This document shows positions 1 through 17,821 of a stretch of DNA of 64,000 nucleotides, piece after piece. The notes under the pieces are model-generated. The model had not been told where the DNA came from. It was given only the letters and a program-made list of their open reading frames with translations, and searched no databases. The DNA is from Paecilomyces variotii (taxonomy: Eukaryota). The translations under genes and the position numbers were made by a program. The stretch is from assembly GCA_004022145.1 (NCBI GenBank), contig RCNU01000023.1. The stretch is one strand, 5' to 3'. The stretch's first letter is position 1; the number at the start of each line of letters is the position of its first letter.

Positions 1-3000
1 TATTTTCTTAATTATACTTAAAGGCTAATAATTATTAAATTAGTTTATCTTAATTAAAAGAAATCTCTATTTTTATTTAATTACTTTCTATAGCTTTTTT
101 TTATATAATTATTTAATCTTATTTTACCTTTTTTTTACTCCTTAGGGCTTATTTAATCCTATTATATTAATAGAGTAATAATTTTTTATAATATCCCCAG
201 CTTCTTCTTTAGAGCTTAAATTATCCCTAGGCTATCCCAGCATAATTAACTAAATATTATATTTAATTAAGCTAATATTCTTTTATTCTTCCTTTAGTCT
301 TTATTTAATAATCTCCTTTTATAATATATTCCCTTATATAAAATAAATAACTTCTCTATTCTATCTTTTTAGCTTAAAATAAAGTTTATAATCTTCTCCC
401 TAATAGATAAGCTTTTAATTTAAGAGGCTTTTTAAATCTAAATAATAAGATTAAATATAATCAGGAGCCTAGCAGAAGTTATATAAATTTAGAGGTATTC
501 TAGATCTTCTAATTGGGTTAAATCTTAAAAGTGCCTTAACTTATATATTTAAGCTAATATTAGGTATATTATTATTAGGCCTCCCTATATACTATATACT
601 ATATAGTTTTAACTTCTTAAACTCTTTTATTAACTAATTAATCTATAACTATTTTATTAACTTTATTTTAGTATTTTATTATTTAGTCCTATTCTTATTC
701 TTATTTAAATAAGTTTTATTAAGTTTAATAAAAAATTATATTTTATCTTTTTTAATTATTTTCTCCTTTATTAAAGCCGCTATATTTTAATCTTTCTCTA
801 GTTTATTACTGTTAAGATAGTAAAGGGTTTTAATTATTCTTATTTTATCTACTACTTCCTTATAAAAATTAATATATTTAATAATAGACAGAGTATAATA
901 GTCTATATTTAACTCTTAAACTATTTATTACTTAAGCTCCTCTAAAAGTCTTTAAAGATATTAAACTTTTTATAAGTATTAGCTTAATTTATCTAAAATT
1001 ACCAGCACTTCTAATATAGCTTAATATTCTTAATTATACTTCCTTAAATCCTCAGAGCTATTATATTTTATATTTTTAAACTTTTCTAGCTATTAAATAT
1101 TATATTTCCTTTAGTGCTTATTATAATAAATATACTCTTATTTAATTGCTTCTGCCAGTTTTAAATAGTTCTTTTTTTTATATTTAGATTAAGTATTTAT
1201 TTATAATAATACCAATAGGCTATAATAGTCTATAAACTATTTAGTTTTTTTTTTTTTTAAGAATTAATTCGCCTTATATAGCCTCTTAAAAAGCCTTAAA
1301 TAATAAATAATATTATCTCCTTTAAAATATAATACCCTAAAATTTCTAGATATTAGTATCTGCAGAGCTAATATAACCTAGATTAGCTATATTATTAATA
1401 GTCTTATATTTTTAAATACCTAAGCTATTTATATCTTTAGACTTAGTAATATTAAAAAACTAGGAATCTTTCTATTTTAATTAGCGCTAAAAAGATTAAT
1501 ACTTTTCTCTATATTTTTTTAAAAGAATAGTAATAAAGATAATAGTAAAAAATTCTTTTATTTTTTAATAAATAGTTCTTACTTAATAATTTTTTATTCT
1601 TTTTAAATTTCTGCTTCTCTTTTATATTTATTAAGCTCTTCCTTATATTTAGCAGTCCTTCCTTTCTCTTATTATTAATATATATTTTTACCTTATATTA
1701 TATTTACTATCTTTACTAATCTAAAAGATATATTTATTTTTTTTTATTTATAATAGTAATCTTCTTCAGCTATTTTATTTATCTTTTTACTACTTTTTAC
1801 TCTTTTTTTTAACTTTAGCCTTAACCTTAGCTTTTAATTCTCTTTTCTCCTTTATTTCTACTTAATATTTTAATATCTCCCTATATTTAGCTCTATTTTA
1901 TTATAGAAAAATATATTAAGACTTAATATAAAGTCTTTAAGCAAGTAAGTATTAAGAAAAAAAAGAAAGATATTTAGCTTTGGAGCTTAGAGTAAAGCTA
2001 AAAGAAAAGCTTTAATTATAGACTAATATAGTAAACTAATAATAATCTAATACTAAACTAATATTGAACAATAATAAAAAGAAAAAGCTAATTATTTTAT
2101 TCTAAATAACTAAAAGATATTATCTCCTTTCTTCTGCTTTATTTATAGACTTTTTAAAGACTTTAAATAAAAGCATATAACCTCTTAACTAATTACATTC
2201 TTTATACTAATCCTCCCCACTATAATAAAACCTTTAAAATCCTTTACTAATAAAATTGCTTTCTACTTAAATATTAAATAGAGCGCCTATTTAAATAATT
2301 AGCTTATAGGGCTTTACTAGGCTGCTTATTACCTATACCCTAAGACTTATTATAAGAGCTATAAAGAATAAAATAAGGCTATTTATTAAGTAATCTAGCA
2401 GTATACCGGCAAATAAACAGTGCTTAATTTTTATTGCTTTAAGGGGTAAACTAAAGCTTTTTATAATAGAGTAATCTGCTAGCAGTAATCTAATATAAAA
2501 GCCTTTTAGAGAATAATAATATAGCCTTTATCCTACTGCTTTTATAACCTACTAACCTATATATTTTATTAGATTAGGGTAATACTAAATCTTATAAACT
2601 TCGCTATATAACTGCTTAAAACTATTACTAATTCTATTACCTCTAAATATTCCTTTTTAACTATAAACCTTCAGTATATAAAGATCTATAATAGGCTTAA
2701 ACCTAAGCATATAGATAAGCTTATCTATATCTATATAAACTCGCGTGTATTATAGGAGATAAATAGAGGCGCAGAATGCCTTAATAAAAGGGATATTAAA
2801 GCCGAACTATTAGATTTAAAAGATAAAGAAATAGAGAAGGCCTATCTTATATAGGAATTCTTAGGCAAAGCCGCTAAAGAACCCCTATCAGCTATAAAAT
2901 TATTTATAGCTAAATAGTTAGTACTAGGATCTAGGAGATTTAATACCTTCGCTAGCTATAAAATACAATATTATTTGGAGTTAAATAGCTTCTAATTTAG

Positions 3001-3173
3001 ATTATTTTAATTTTTTACTGCTTATTAATTAGGGGGTAAAAATATCGGGTGGGTCGGGATTACCATACTAATTTATTAGTATATTTCAAAATTTCAGATA
3101 TTTTATCTCGTGAAATTCGGACCCCCAAATTTTATGAAATTTCTGAAACTTTGAAATTCAAATGCCATCCCTA
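1..3173. mobile_element. RIP-degraded transposon block, AT-rich and running off the left edge. The right part is a hAT-superfamily DNA transposon relic.
   Basis: Very AT-rich, with excess TpA, depleted CpA/TpG and no ORFs. Composition switches abruptly to normal near 3173. The block ends in ...AATGCCATCCCTA (reverse complement TAGGGATGGCATT), which resembles hAT TIR starts such as Ac (C/T)AGGGATG. Confidence 0.85.
2312..2752 (+). pseudogene. hAT transposase C-terminal region (RIP-mutated)
   Basis: One frame reads LY*AAYYLYP (from 2312) and NSITSKYSFLTINLQYIKIYNRLKPKHIDKLIYIYINSRV (from 2630). Reverting C>T/G>A changes gives LHWAAYYLHP and NSVASERSFSTMNLQHTKIRNRLKPEHVDKLIYIYMNSR, matching hAT AAxxLxP and dimerisation-domain SERxFS/RNRL motifs. 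Confidence 0.8.
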
Positions 3174-3641
3174 TTATACAGGCCATTGCAGCGAAAAGCC
3201 CACCCGCAGGGGGGGCACCTTGCTAGAGGGTCTGAGCTTGCTGAGATAAGGTACATGCTGGTATAAGAATTTGAACATGACAGTGCTTAAGCCGCTTAGC
3301 CGATTCGAGCATAGATCGTCACGCTTGTCCCCGGCCACGCGGCGCCTTAGACCGTTAATGAAATAGTACAGTGCACACATTCCCCCAGCCAGTAGATACG
3401 GAGTACGGAGTAGTTATAATAATTAAGCGCGATATTAATGTCGATTAGTTTACCTCTGGTCCCTGGACCATGGAGTTTGAAACCATGCTCTATCAAGACT
3501 AGAGTGACAAGTTCCCCTTTTGCCCCCCTCCTTGATGCTAACACCATCAACGTTATATTACCTTCTTGGCATGCTATTATTCCTTTCTTTGAACTTTCTT
3601 ACAGTATATACAGGAATACACTGTGGATATAAACAACCGGT

Positions 3642-5075
3642 ATGCCTAGCAAAGGAATCACGGTTTACAGCTATATATCCGTCGAGGGATATGTGGTTGA
3701 GTTCACGGCGCCAAAACAACATGTTCAAAGAACACCTGCAGATAACTTTACAGCAGAAAATCTCGAGGTTGAATCGTCCAATATTCCTGGACTGGAAAAC
3801 TTTGTGGGACGGTTCAAGTGGGAGGTTTTCTATCATGCCAGGGACGCCGATGCCCCCGTCCTTATCGGGAGCTCATACTGCGACATCAACAGTCTCACTG
3901 GAAAAGTGGAAGGAGGCACGATGACCGCGACCGCCGCCTGCAAGGCTATCGTAACAAACAATGCCATTATTACATATGGATTTTATAGTGCAGGCCATGG
4001 AGAATTCGGATTGACCAATCGCGACCAATGCTATGTAACCATTTGTCCGGCTTCCAACAGGGCCTGGATGGGAGCAGTTGCGCCACCAGGGTCTATCGAG
4101 GCGCAGAAACCATTCTCGCGGTTTGTGCTTGCAGCTCCACATGACAATGGCATGAATAGTATGCAGTCCTGTGATATTATCTTCAAGCACTTAGATCACG
4201 ACATGGTGCACGAATTGCGCGAAATCACACCGTCTCTACAACACTTTGATCACCTGCCAGACCATCTTCTCCTAGCTAAATTGCCAGACATAGTCTATGG
4301 AGTGTCTATTACGCAGAAGAAAGAGATTTCGATTATGCTGGCCCTAGGGGCACGTTATTTCGAATTCCGTCCAGCCAAGTTGTTGCCGATGTTCCAGAAG
4401 CTCTCGGTCCTACCAGATAAATTCTATTTTCAGCATGCGTGCATACCCGGGTTGGCATTCGACGAGTTTCTTGACCAGCTGGTTACTTTTCTAGATGAAC
4501 ACCCTACCGAGATAGCGGTCATCCATATTAGGTCGGATAACCTACTCAAGGAGTGCCAGAAGCCCACGGAGGACGAGATTGCAGCCGCGCTCACCAACGC
4601 TTGCGCACAGGCACGCAACGAACGACTGACCTGGGGAGATAGCGAATGTTTCCGACAGCCAATTGATATATTACGCCATGATGGGAGACGCCTGATTTGC
4701 GTGATCGAAGCCGAAAAATACGACAGCTGGACAGCTGAAGCCTACGCGACACTTCATGCAGATTCGATCCTTAAGCGCTTCGAAGAGATGACCACTGAGG
4801 GACAGGAGAGCACAGATCTGACTATCCTGCAGTGTCAGGCTACGTCGCAATCAATCAAGGAAGTGTTTGTGCATAGTGTGCTAGCGGCACACGCCGCGAC
4901 CTCATGCCTTGCGTCCACCAAGGCGGCAATAGACATGCACACACTTCCTTGGATTCGTCAGAACGCACTTGATAGATTAAAGGCGGACAAGAACATCGTC
5001 ATTATGAATGACTTCATTGATGGCGCGACTTGCGATACGGCTATATTGCTGTCGAGGGAAAGACTGCTAGCCTAA
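3642..5075 (+). CDS. PLC-like phosphodiesterase (PI-PLC X-domain/TIM barrel), single exon, 477 aa
   Basis: Long ORF. APHDNGMN, ITQ...LALGARYFEFRP, FQH and FLDEHPTEIAVIHI match PI-PLC-like catalytic domain motifs. Confidence 0.75.
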   Translation: MPSKGITVYSYISVEGYVVEFTAPKQHVQRTPADNFTAENLEVESSNIPGLENFVGRFKWEVFYHARDADAPVLIGSSYCDINSLTGKVEGGTMTATAACKAIVTNNAIITYGFYSAGHGEFGLTNRDQCYVTICPASNRAWMGAVAPPGSIEAQKPFSRFVLAAPHDNGMNSMQSCDIIFKHLDHDMVHELREITPSLQHFDHLPDHLLLAKLPDIVYGVSITQKKEISIMLALGARYFEFRPAKLLPMFQKLSVLPDKFYFQHACIPGLAFDEFLDQLVTFLDEHPTEIAVIHIRSDNLLKECQKPTEDEIAAALTNACAQARNERLTWGDSECFRQPIDILRHDGRRLICVIEAEKYDSWTAEAYATLHADSILKRFEEMTTEGQESTDLTILQCQATSQSIKEVFVHSVLAAHAATSCLASTKAAIDMHTLPWIRQNALDRLKADKNIVIMNDFIDGATCDTAILLSRERLLA

Positions 5076-14770: not shown

Positions 14771-15743
14771 TGCATTAATTGCATATATACCGTTGGATAT
14801 TTCGACATCATATGTATATACAGGAGGGCCTTTTCCCTTGGTCTCTCATGTATTGTAGTCTGGGAGCAGTATCGCAGATGTGGATGTATGTACATACTAC
14901 TAGTTAGTCATTGCCCTACCCAGCCATGCAATCACATTTATGTATGTACCTGTGGATTAGTTACTACATATACCATTTGTTTCTGATTTTCTTGTCCTTG
15001 GATAATACGGTAGAAACCTCCACGGTGTGGAAATAGAGTCAAAGTCAGACAATAATAATGAGAGAGAGTAGTTATAGAAACCGCTGCAGAAATTGCTACA
15101 TTAATATTTAATATTCCATAGTCTCTCGCGTGCCGCATTCCAAGTCCAGACCCGTTGTTAGGGTTTAGCCGAGCAGAAGCTCTCCCGACATCTTCTTCCA
15201 CCACGAACTGCGCACAACAACACTCGAATAAACCATCCTGATGTCTCTGATGCATCCCCATGCCTTGTAATATCGTAGTCCTGTTAGACATAACCCGTAG
15301 ACGTGGCCCTCATGGCTGTCCGTAAGAAACGTGGACTGTGAACCAGGCGAACCGTTCATTTTGCACTCCACACAAACTGGTGCTTGGGCCCGACGGCGAG
15401 CTAAGTAATTCGGAACCCCAAGATGTTGCTCGTCTCCCTCCACTGCGTCTTCTGCTCGATCCAACCTCTCTAGAGACGAACCATTATCACCCCTCTACGA
15501 AGACCTTTCCTTGTGAGTGCCCTCGACCTCGACCCTCTTTGTCTTGCGCGGTGAGCGAAGATCAATCGTCTCCAAGCCCCAACCCCGCTGCGACCTACAA
15601 TAACTCTACTTCGTTACCGAGCTTAGCTAACCAGACGCCTTTTCGCTAACAAGACCCGGTCACTGAAATCGTCGGCGGGCGACATAATTCCACACGCGCG
15701 AAACTCATACAGAATCGAGTGTCCCCGAGAACAAAATCTCATA

Positions 15744-16754
15744 ATGGATCAGGCAAAGCTGGCTAGACTCCAGGCGAGCGTGCGGATTGGTACGTGTGTT
15801 CTGTTGGTTGGATTGTGTGCGGCATGATTTCGCAATCTCGAACTGGGCTGTTAGGCTTCGTGCGGAGGAAGCAGTAGCTGCTGGGAAGCTTAGCCTAGCC
15901 CCCTTTTCTGGTTGTCGAATATCTTTCGCCTTGTTCTATCTGCCTTATGAGTTTGCCGATGCAACGATGGGATTGCTAACATGTGCTCTGCAATCTAGGG
16001 TGCGTTATACTCTTTGACCTTACCCTTTGAGAAGATTAAAGGGATCCCCTTTCGCCCTTCATCTCTATCCCAAGGCCTTTACTGTCCTGGAGCACAATTC
16101 AATTCATTCCAATATTCCAGTGTGCGAGGCTTGATCGCATCCCCGTTTCTATCAGCTCCAATGCACGATTTACATCTCGACTGAATAAAGTTATACACGG
16201 GTTTGGCTGACATTGGATATTTCCACGTTACAGAGGCAAGGGTACCCCCCGCCGCAAGACCAAGAGAGTCCACAAGTCGTCCGGCGCCGACGACAAGAAG
16301 CTCCAGACCACCCTGAAGAAGATGAACGTTCAGCCCATCCAGGCTATCGAGGAGGTTAACATGTTCAAGGAGGACGGCAACGTCATCCACTTCTCTGCTC
16401 CTAGAGGTGAGTCCGGATAGTCGGTCTTCTGCGCGACCTATGTCGATGGAGAGAGTACACTTCTTCAACAACCGCGAATTGTCTGCTAATCATCCATGAC
16501 ACTCTTCAGTCCACGCTTCCGTCCCCTCCAACACATTCGCCCTCTACGGTAACGGTGAGGAGAAGGAACTGACCGAGCTCGTCCCCGGTATCCTCAACCA
16601 GCTCGGCCCCGACAGCCTCGCATCCCTCCGCAAGCTCGCTGAGAGCTACCAGAACCTCCAGAAGAAGGAGGGTGCTGAGAAGAAGGAGGACGATGATGAG
16701 GATGACATCCCCGACCTGGTCGAGGGTGAGAACTTCGAGAGCAAGGTTGAGTAA
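15744..16754 (+). CDS. egd1: Nascent polypeptide-associated complex subunit beta (BTF3). Exons 15744-15789, 15999 (1 nt), 16234-16406, 16510-16754.
   Basis: [24 protein letters not shown]...[59 protein letters not shown] probable 5'-UTR intron lies at about 15513-15653. Confidence 0.97.
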
Positions 16755-17821
16755 ACGGGTTCAGAGCTGTGCTGTGTGGGGGAAAAGAGGGGCAGGCGCA
16801 AAAGATGGAATTGAAAGGAATTGATCAATCATTACGAAATAATAAGAATGCTTGTGACGTTGATTGTATCCGACTGGGCCTGCAGGTCCTTCCACTGGTC
16901 ATCTACCCTGTGTCCCTCCAAGACTGTGCGATATCTGAGCTATCCATCTATATCAAACATATCTTCTGGCCCATCTTCATGGGTCAGACTACGCCGACGT
17001 TGCAATATTGGTCACTTGTTAGTATTGGCTATCATTGCTGGCCAAATCTGTTTCAAGTTGCGAAATCCTATCAGCATGACCAGTGACTATGATCCTTGCC
17101 TAGGAGGATATGGTTGTAACATGAAGGTGGACCTATGACTGATCTCTCATACTAATTTGAGGGTAACATGAAAAGATATCGATGAGGCAATCGGGCCCGT
17201 TCTTCTAATCAATGAAGAAATATTAGGATGCCGCGTCATACAATTGCACGGAATGGTCCTTAATCCACCGTTACACAGAACCCAACACTAGGAAAACCAA
17301 CGACCACACGCCCACAAGGCTTATGTACGCTTATCGCCAAACTCCCCGCAATAGAGGCTGCAAAATAAAGAATAGAAAGATCGCCATGATACATGCTGGG
17401 CTGTAATGTTGATAAACTTTTCTTTGGATGAGGCAACCATGCACCAACAAACGGAACGTCGAACTTGCCGTAGTCATTAGCAAGAATCATCGTCTCGGAG
17501 CTCTAACGCAACATACAATTGCAGAGCACACATTTTTCGAGCCAATCCCAACTCCTGTACGCATGAATGTGCATTCTTAGAGTTCTGGCTGCAGTTGGAA
17601 TCTCCCGAGCGTGGAAGCCATGAAGCTGCGATGACATCTGTAAGTCCCTCTATAGGAACTCGTCCACCGCATCTGGAACATCCACACAGATATTCCTTGC
17701 CAAGGCTGTCTATCAACACTGGGTAATCTGTTGTGATCTCAATGACACTTCCAAGTGTCCATGTTCGAGAAAAGCCGTGCCGCTGACCAGTCAGGAAATG
17801 ATAGGTGAGGCAGCTAGGCTC

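Follow-up and report, generated by a model that had tools for sequence, protein, structure and literature searches.

How does a gene keep its reading frame when two successive coding exons are together one base short? The plus strand of the window, by which we mean the whole analysed stretch of 64,000 nucleotides of Paecilomyces variotii DNA, codes at positions 15744-16754 for NAC-beta (egd1/BTF3), the beta subunit of the nascent-polypeptide-associated complex. Its first coding exon gives one base of a glycine codon and the exon starting at 16234 gives one base before GGC, which leaves the codon one base short. A preliminary description of this locus placed the missing base at G15999, where it would stand as a single-nucleotide exon between two complete introns, so that the codon GGA would be built from three exons (G|G|A). 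The 443-nt skip found in RNA contigs and the conserved splice signals, both reported below, are in agreement with this proposal.

Gene structure and identity

The features of the locus are as follows.

15513..15653, plus strand: intron in the 5' UTR, GTGAGT...AAG, 141 nt; a contig of RNA run X5 joins 15512 to 15654, with GT..AG ends.
15744..15789, plus strand: coding exon 1, from ATG at 15744 to GTG CGG ATT (ATT at 15786-15788) and G15789, which is base 1 of the Gly codon; 15-residue translation.
15790..15998, plus strand: intron A, 209 nt; donor GTACGT at 15790-15795, branch site GCTAAC at 15975-15980, acceptor CTAG.
15999, plus strand: proposed exon of a single nucleotide, G, which is base 2 of the Gly codon G-G-A.
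16000..16233, plus strand: intron B, 234 nt; donor GTGCGT at 16000-16005, branch site GCTGAC at 16206-16211, acceptor ACAG.
16234..16406, plus strand: next coding exon, with A as base 3 of the Gly codon and then GGC AAG GGT ACC; it encodes GKGTPRRK..., the start of the NAC domain, and is covered by RNA contigs at 16233-16404.
16407..16509, plus strand: ordinary phase-1 intron, GTGAGT...TTCAG, 103 nt; contigs of runs X5 and X3 skip these 103 nt, with GT..AG ends.
16510..16754, plus strand: last coding exon, with the TAA stop codon at 16752-16754; RNA contigs reach 16868, where there is a loose poly(A) end.

All positions given in the preliminary description for the end of exon 1, for the donors, branch sites and acceptors of both introns, for G15999 and for A16234 agree with the sequence. 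The branch-point A lies 19 nt before the AG of intron A and 23 nt before that of intron B. The UTR intron has one CTAAC word just 4 nt before its AG and another 23 nt before it.

The peptide encoded by 16234-16406 (P0001) matches the Pfam NAC domain PF01849 with an E-value of 1.4e-15 and 57.4 bits, the cut-off being 21.3. A P. variotii protein from the databases (P0007) scores 81.3 bits against the same domain, is identical to P0001 in the part that they share, and agrees with the gene in the window at 136 of 136 residues from the GTPRRK motif onwards. The best database matches are NAC subunit beta proteins of Paecilomyces (P. variotii and P. lecythidis), Thermoascus, Aspergillus and others, with 88-100% identity. 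The gene is thus identified as NAC-beta by a NAC domain above the gathering score, by orthology to named NAC-beta proteins and by the IGGKG motif, which is restored in the spliced mRNA.

At the start of the window (1-4000), the first 2 kb have a G+C content of 19% and the next 2 kb of 35%, compared with 44-52% in the rest. This part may be an AT-rich block, either repeat-mutated or centromere-like.

Sequence of the mature mRNA

The region is contained in 19 sequencing runs from 8 studies, four of which (X1, X2, X3 and X5) were aligned to positions 15400-16900 as assembled contigs. In a contig of the metatranscriptome X5 (depth 336), 15789 is followed directly by 16233, so that 443 nt are skipped and no letter is inserted at the joint. 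The intron at 16407-16509 is missing from this contig as well, and its loose poly(A) end is at 16868. An identical joint of 15789 and 16233 is present in a 59-nt junction contig (depth 44) of X3, which comes from a third study. The mRNA consequently reads ATT GGA GGC AAG (IGGKG). Had 15789 been joined straight to 16234, the skip would be 444 rather than 443 nt and the message exactly one base shorter. The mRNA predicted in the preliminary description, ...CGGATTGGAGGCAAG..., is matched exactly by these X5 and X3 contigs, and the competing product ATTGGCAAG, with a skip of 446 nt and a single glycine, was looked for and is in no contig. No skip of 440, 444 or 446 nt was found at this site among the contigs of X5 and X3, which represent the major form of the message.

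At the joint, one G fits either side, and the aligner labelled it 'GT..CA, both = 1'. Because donors always begin with G, the extra base is formally 15790, 15999 or 16233, and these share one and the same mRNA sequence. The case for G15999 therefore rests on the conservation of the internal splice signals. A second AG-N-GT in the interval of the window was considered as an alternative exon and rejected, as it would bring into the mRNA a base other than G, which is absent from the contigs.

In runs X1 and X2, which are labelled as RNA, the region occurs only in long unspliced contigs (7.4- and 3.3-kb pieces of records of up to 176 kb). These contigs are DNA-like and carry no information on splicing. 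No half-spliced joint (15789-15999 or 15999-16234) is among the joints listed for the four runs, a result without weight in either direction, as contigs drop rare forms. Compared with the exons of the window, the spliced contigs contain 0 other letters, and around 15999 the genomic sequence is confirmed by record 4 of X3, which is unspliced, and by X1 and X2.

Between the strain of the window and those of the public runs, roughly twelve substitutions and two short indels were seen at 15851-16220, clustered in the two introns. None falls in the exons, in the internal AG-G-GT or in either branch site. Just after the donor GTGCG(T), at 16004, one run carries an additional T.

Conservation in related fungi

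An alignment of 20 proteins was used to scan metagenome contigs of JGI. Of 573 matching stretches, 365 were confirmed, and the best 80 of these were taken, a sample that leans towards relatives of the query. In each locus, a script located exon 1 (..KL..Q..RI, then G) and the exon encoding GKGTPRRK. Among the best 80 of the 365 confirmed matches, the exon 1 peptide followed by G|GT is present in 73 related loci. In all 73 and in the window, exon 1 ends with RI and G|GT and the next exon opens with AG|N|GGN AAR, so that each locus is one base short; the two exons lie 132-572 nt apart. The same layout, ...gctaacaatctcgcag g gtaagct..., was read by eye in L012 (277-590), which escaped the script pattern owing to an extra intron in exon 1. 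This additional intron of L012 follows MDHEKLAR, and the N-terminal 17 codons are there spread over four exons. Locus L001, from the same species as the window, begins inside intron B and was left out of the assessable loci. Within the best 80 of 365, the double interruption is thus found in 74 of 79 assessable loci (the 73 and L012), no interruption in 5, and one of the two introns in 0.

Of the five loci without interruption, three are contigs of 1.2-1.6 kb (L021, L025 and L030); their whole coding sequence is continuous, as in cDNA, and they read ATT/ATC GGA GGN AAR. The other two, L075 (330-470) and L076 (2453-2680), are genomic: the downstream intron is kept and there is no intron at the Gly codon, the two loci reading GGC GGA and GGT GGG. 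All five intron-free relatives have an ATT GGN GGN AAG-type motif. A protein search for a close named relative of L076 found none (best match 90%).

An internal AG-G-GT is present in all 73 loci analysed by the script and in the window. Where two AGGGT words occur (13 loci), a branch site lies upstream of just one of them. Over these loci, again from the best 80 of 365, sub-intron A measures 57-487 nt and sub-intron B 68-234 nt. In blastn comparisons, the intervening sequences of this sample fall into 41 clusters that are mutually unalignable, so the splice signals have been kept although everything around them has diverged. The following counts are based on one representative of each of the 41 clusters from the best 80 of 365.

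Donor of intron A, GTNNG: 41 of 41 clusters.
Internal acceptor, YAG (Y at -3): 41 of 41 clusters.
Donor of intron B, GT[AG]NG (G at +5): 39 of 41 clusters.
Branch site (YTRAY) before the internal AG: 39 of 41 clusters, 11-27 nt upstream.
Branch site before the final AG: 40 of 41 clusters, 11-23 nt upstream.
Length of sub-intron A: median 98 nt, range 60-487 nt, 41 clusters.
Length of sub-intron B: median 131 nt, range 75-234 nt, 41 clusters.

The single G is invariant in 41 of 41 clusters, AGGGT being itself the search word; at loci with a single AGGGT, the independent evidence therefore lies in the flanking positions, where Y at -3 and G at +5 are not forced. Positions outside the splice signals hold less than 0.6 bits each over the same clusters. 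The third base of the Gly codon varies (A in 17, T in 12, C in 11 and G in 1 of the 41), and therefore 24 of the 41 clusters have no nearby alternative AG by which one intron could close the frame. The preliminary description had pointed to the conservation of AG-G-GT in egd1 orthologues as a check, and 74 of the 79 assessable loci (best 80 of 365) do keep YAG-G-GT together with a branch site of its own.

Paecilomyces variotii belongs to the Eurotiales. Locus L014 agrees with a protein of Sphaerulina musiva (Dothideomycetes, Mycosphaerellales) at 138 of 138 residues, and L007 with a protein of Exophiala viscosa (Chaetothyriales) at 135 of 137. Many other loci are nearest to proteins of lichen fungi, most taxon labels being guesses from the nearest protein. 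Judged by these protein matches, the arrangement is old and common to Eurotiomycetes and Dothideomycetes, and lichen-forming lineages probably have it as well. A database model of Orbilia brochopaga with the motif RIGKG gives no more than a hint of the same exon in the Orbiliomycetes.

Expectation by chance

The sample (best 80 of 365) contains 61 distinct intervening sequences. AGGGT is present in 61 of 61, where 7.06 are expected from 200 dinucleotide-preserving shuffles of each sequence. The strict site YTRAY-N6-30-AGGGTRNG occurs in 56 of 61, with an expectation of 0.135, and the remaining 5 each differ from it at a single position, having the donor GTATAT or GTAAAT or the branch site CTAAA. 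In 375,898 bases of flanking DNA of the related loci, counted on both strands, AGGGT has a frequency of 0.72 per kb and the strict site of 0.016 per kb, so that about 0.007 strict sites are expected in 444 nt. Across both strands of the 64-kb window the strict site occurs twice, one of the two being the site of G15999. The occurrence of this site exceeds chance.

Other possible origins of the extra base

These frequencies bear on the possibility that a single non-canonical intron is removed in one step, with either GT..CA (15790-16232) or TA..AG ends (15791-16233), in which case the internal AG-G-GT would be irrelevant. Such an intron is equally compatible with the mRNA sequence and corresponds to the GT..CA label of the aligner, and the contig joints listed include no half-spliced intermediate. 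However, it leaves unexplained why AGGGT is found in 61 of 61 sequences against 7.06 expected and the strict site in 56 of 61 against 0.135, across 41 unalignable clusters (best 80 of 365), and why in this sample both halves are always intron-sized (at least 57 and at least 68 nt). GT-CA or TA-AG boundaries are not known to be used efficiently by the U2 spliceosome, yet the form with the 443-nt skip predominates among the mRNAs of this highly expressed gene. We regard removal in one step as very improbable.

It is harder still to believe that the extra G does not stem from splicing at this locus, and that its source is a different strain, a second, processed copy of the gene, a faulty assembly of the window or the post-transcriptional addition of a base. 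Libraries of this kind do contain DNA, as X1 and X2, labelled as RNA, hold the locus unspliced. Against such an origin, the spliced contigs match the exons of the window with 0 other letters, the contig of X5 carries a loose poly(A) end, and record 4 of X3, X1 and X2 all show the genomic letters around 15999 as in the window. Furthermore, the one-base deficit recurs in 74 independent loci from many assemblies (best 80 of 365) and is therefore not an assembly error.

Database proteins and gene models

Gene predictors had been expected to fail at this locus, and database NAC-beta proteins do carry wrong N-termini or an altered motif. The 203 NAC-beta relatives returned by two protein searches were sorted by their N-terminal motif.

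RIGGKG, the correct motif: 83 of 203 relatives.
RIGxGKG, with x being I, T, D, E, H or N: 26 of 203 relatives.
RIGKG: 8 of 203 relatives.
RIG-TPRR: 2 of 203 relatives.
Unrelated N-terminus: 80 of 203 relatives.
Motif absent: 4 of 203 relatives.

A residue is inserted into or deleted from the invariant motif, which adjoins the ribosome-contact region RRK, in 36 of the 203 relatives. Many of the RIGGKG entries come from contigs of about 1 kb, three cDNA-like ones being L021, L025 and L030. P0007 reads VRIGTGKG, which corresponds to a model with an intron of 440 nt from donor GTGTGT at 15794 to the acceptor at 16233. In the window, moving the donor by 4 nt to the GT at +5/+6 gives GGT AC+A, or Gly-Thr, as in P0007. 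From the donor types of other species and the residues found there, we infer that residue x elsewhere would result from the same donor shift to +5/+6, being encoded after GGT by positions +3/+4 and the third base. The NAC-beta database models of Aspergillus niger, A. terreus and A. fumigatus have tell-tale wrong N-termini.

In some models (P0064, P0036 and P0040), the NAC-beta exons are fused to neighbouring genes or to foreign N-termini; one example is a 375-aa protein of Aspergillus fumigatus Z5 named 'UDP-glucose-4-epimerase'. These fusions are probably further effects of the unmodelled one-base exon.

The one canonical intron of the database models, either 15794-16233 (440 nt, IGTGKG) or 15790-16235 (446 nt, IGKG), has a next to negligible probability as the explanation of the locus: both versions are in frame with GT-AG ends, and P0007 (VRIGTGKG) and the relatives with RIGxGKG (26 of 203) or RIGKG (8 of 203) have such motifs, but in the contigs of both X5 and X3 the skip is 443 nt, no other joint is listed at the site, and the cDNA-like contigs of relatives read IGGKG. 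The two database versions may still have minor use.

Public protein databases hold a systematic error at the N-terminus of NAC-beta. Programs for gene prediction and spliced alignment should be given a rule that covers AG-N-GT exons, at which a phase-1 boundary meets a phase-2 boundary.

Splicing mechanism and evolution

We conclude with high confidence that two introns of the ordinary U2-type GT-AG kind, 209 and 234 nt long, are removed and that G15999 is kept as a one-nucleotide exon, completing the Gly codon G|G|A in the invariant N-terminal motif. This explanation includes a probable successive, recursive-like removal of the introns, and an old arrangement that has been lost as a pair. What has been observed of it is the sequence of the mRNA and the fact that every splice signal is conserved: the mRNA has one extra base, G15999 has a complete acceptor upstream and a complete donor downstream, and the internal signals are conserved despite the divergence of the introns.

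With a donor, a CTRAC branch site and a YAG acceptor of its own, each intron would be excised by standard U2-type reactions. The AG of intron A falls on -3 and -2 relative to the donor of intron B, inside the region with which U1 must pair, and owing to this overlap the two introns are probably recognised and removed successively, by intron definition. Factors at the two sites should exclude each other, in a succession much like that at recursive splice sites. Chemically, either order would work, because in both cases a long RNA remains covalently bound to the one-base exon up to the second reaction. If 15789 is joined directly to 16234 and the G skipped, the reading frame shifts and a stop codon follows 26 codons later.

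The two introns seem to have been lost only as a pair, as in the best 80 of 365 there are 74 loci with both, 2 genomic loci with none and 0 with one. This both-or-none pattern would fit a loss through recombination with cDNA, since a crossover between the introns would find no homology in an exon of one base.

A more far-reaching version of this explanation, which we consider rather unlikely, holds that the exon predates the split of the Eurotiomycetes, the Dothideomycetes and the lichen-forming classes, and that the overlap with the U1 site imposes a fixed recursive-like order. Occasional skipping of the G could then serve as a decay-coupled valve that tunes this abundant ribosome-associated chaperone, and the both-or-none pattern would also result from selection.

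The removal of two ordinary introns around a retained G15999 is of more general importance. NAC-beta is an abundant housekeeping gene of an essential type, and the arrangement is likely to be common to genetically tractable moulds, which makes it a model for how the spliceosome handles an exon that is too small to bind, and for whether the introns leave in a set order. In addition, it shows that an exon of one base can be retained over very long times, in two fungal classes or more.

Comparison with known systems

Ratchet points (AG|GTAAGT), which are zero-length exons, occur in long introns of Drosophila and vertebrates, and nothing of them stays in the mRNA. At NAC-beta, likewise, a 3' splice site lies beside a 5' splice site within a long intervening sequence that would be removed in two successive reactions. 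The difference is that NAC-beta keeps one base and therefore has two true introns; these are moreover short (about 60-490 nt) and belong to an organism with intron definition. A recursive splice site in the strict sense was rejected, as one G stands between AG and GT and is retained in the mRNA.

Stwintrons, as described in the parts of the literature that we drew on, consist of an internal intron that interrupts a splice signal of an external intron, which forms only after the first excision. They too occur in fungi and take two standard splicing reactions, one after the other, to be removed. Two canonical donors lying one nucleotide apart are described for Lipomyces in the portion of that report considered here (PMC7138796). 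A [D1,2] stwintron needs a T, whereas NAC-beta reads GGTGCG after the AG at 15998. The stwintron reading was rejected, as both donors (15790 and 16000), the branch sites and the acceptors are all intact and un-nested in the genomic sequence.

One-nucleotide exons have been reported before. A long-read annotation of Coprinopsis cinerea includes 13 of them in 13 genes (PMC12230235). That fungus is a basidiomycete, and the part of the report used here presents a genome-wide tally without analysis at the level of genes or of conservation. The single-nucleotide exon of Arabidopsis APC11 (Guo and Liu 2015, PMC4674806) resembles that of NAC-beta, in the sections considered, in being constitutive, in lying between two spliceosomal introns, in having been misannotated in GenBank and in being needed for the reading frame. 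It differs in belonging to a plant gene, in being an A (A333) and in having been tested with reporter constructs, whereas the NAC-beta exon is known from sequence and RNA contigs.

A close parallel is the one-nucleotide exon in the CYP621A P450 genes of Fusarium (Nelson and Syed 2026, PMC12940212), as it is presented in the abstract, Results and Discussion of that paper. There, too, the exon lies in an AGGGT word, is a single G in the middle of a Gly codon of a conserved motif, and brings a phase-1 boundary together with a phase-2 boundary. It was likewise found since gene models would not close, and is backed by conservation in orthologues and by RNA reads. The CYP621A genes are rarely expressed and confined to 20-24 genes of one genus, whereas NAC-beta is an abundant housekeeping gene in which the exon spans at least two classes of Pezizomycotina and 41 unalignable lineages. 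The CYP621A case is described as the first in a fungal gene, and NAC-beta goes unmentioned in those three sections. No report of a one-nucleotide exon in egd1, NAC-beta or BTF3 was found in the literature searched, which lay outside subscription journals and supplements. The NAC-beta exon is a new, deeply conserved and strongly expressed case of the known but very rare one-nucleotide exons.
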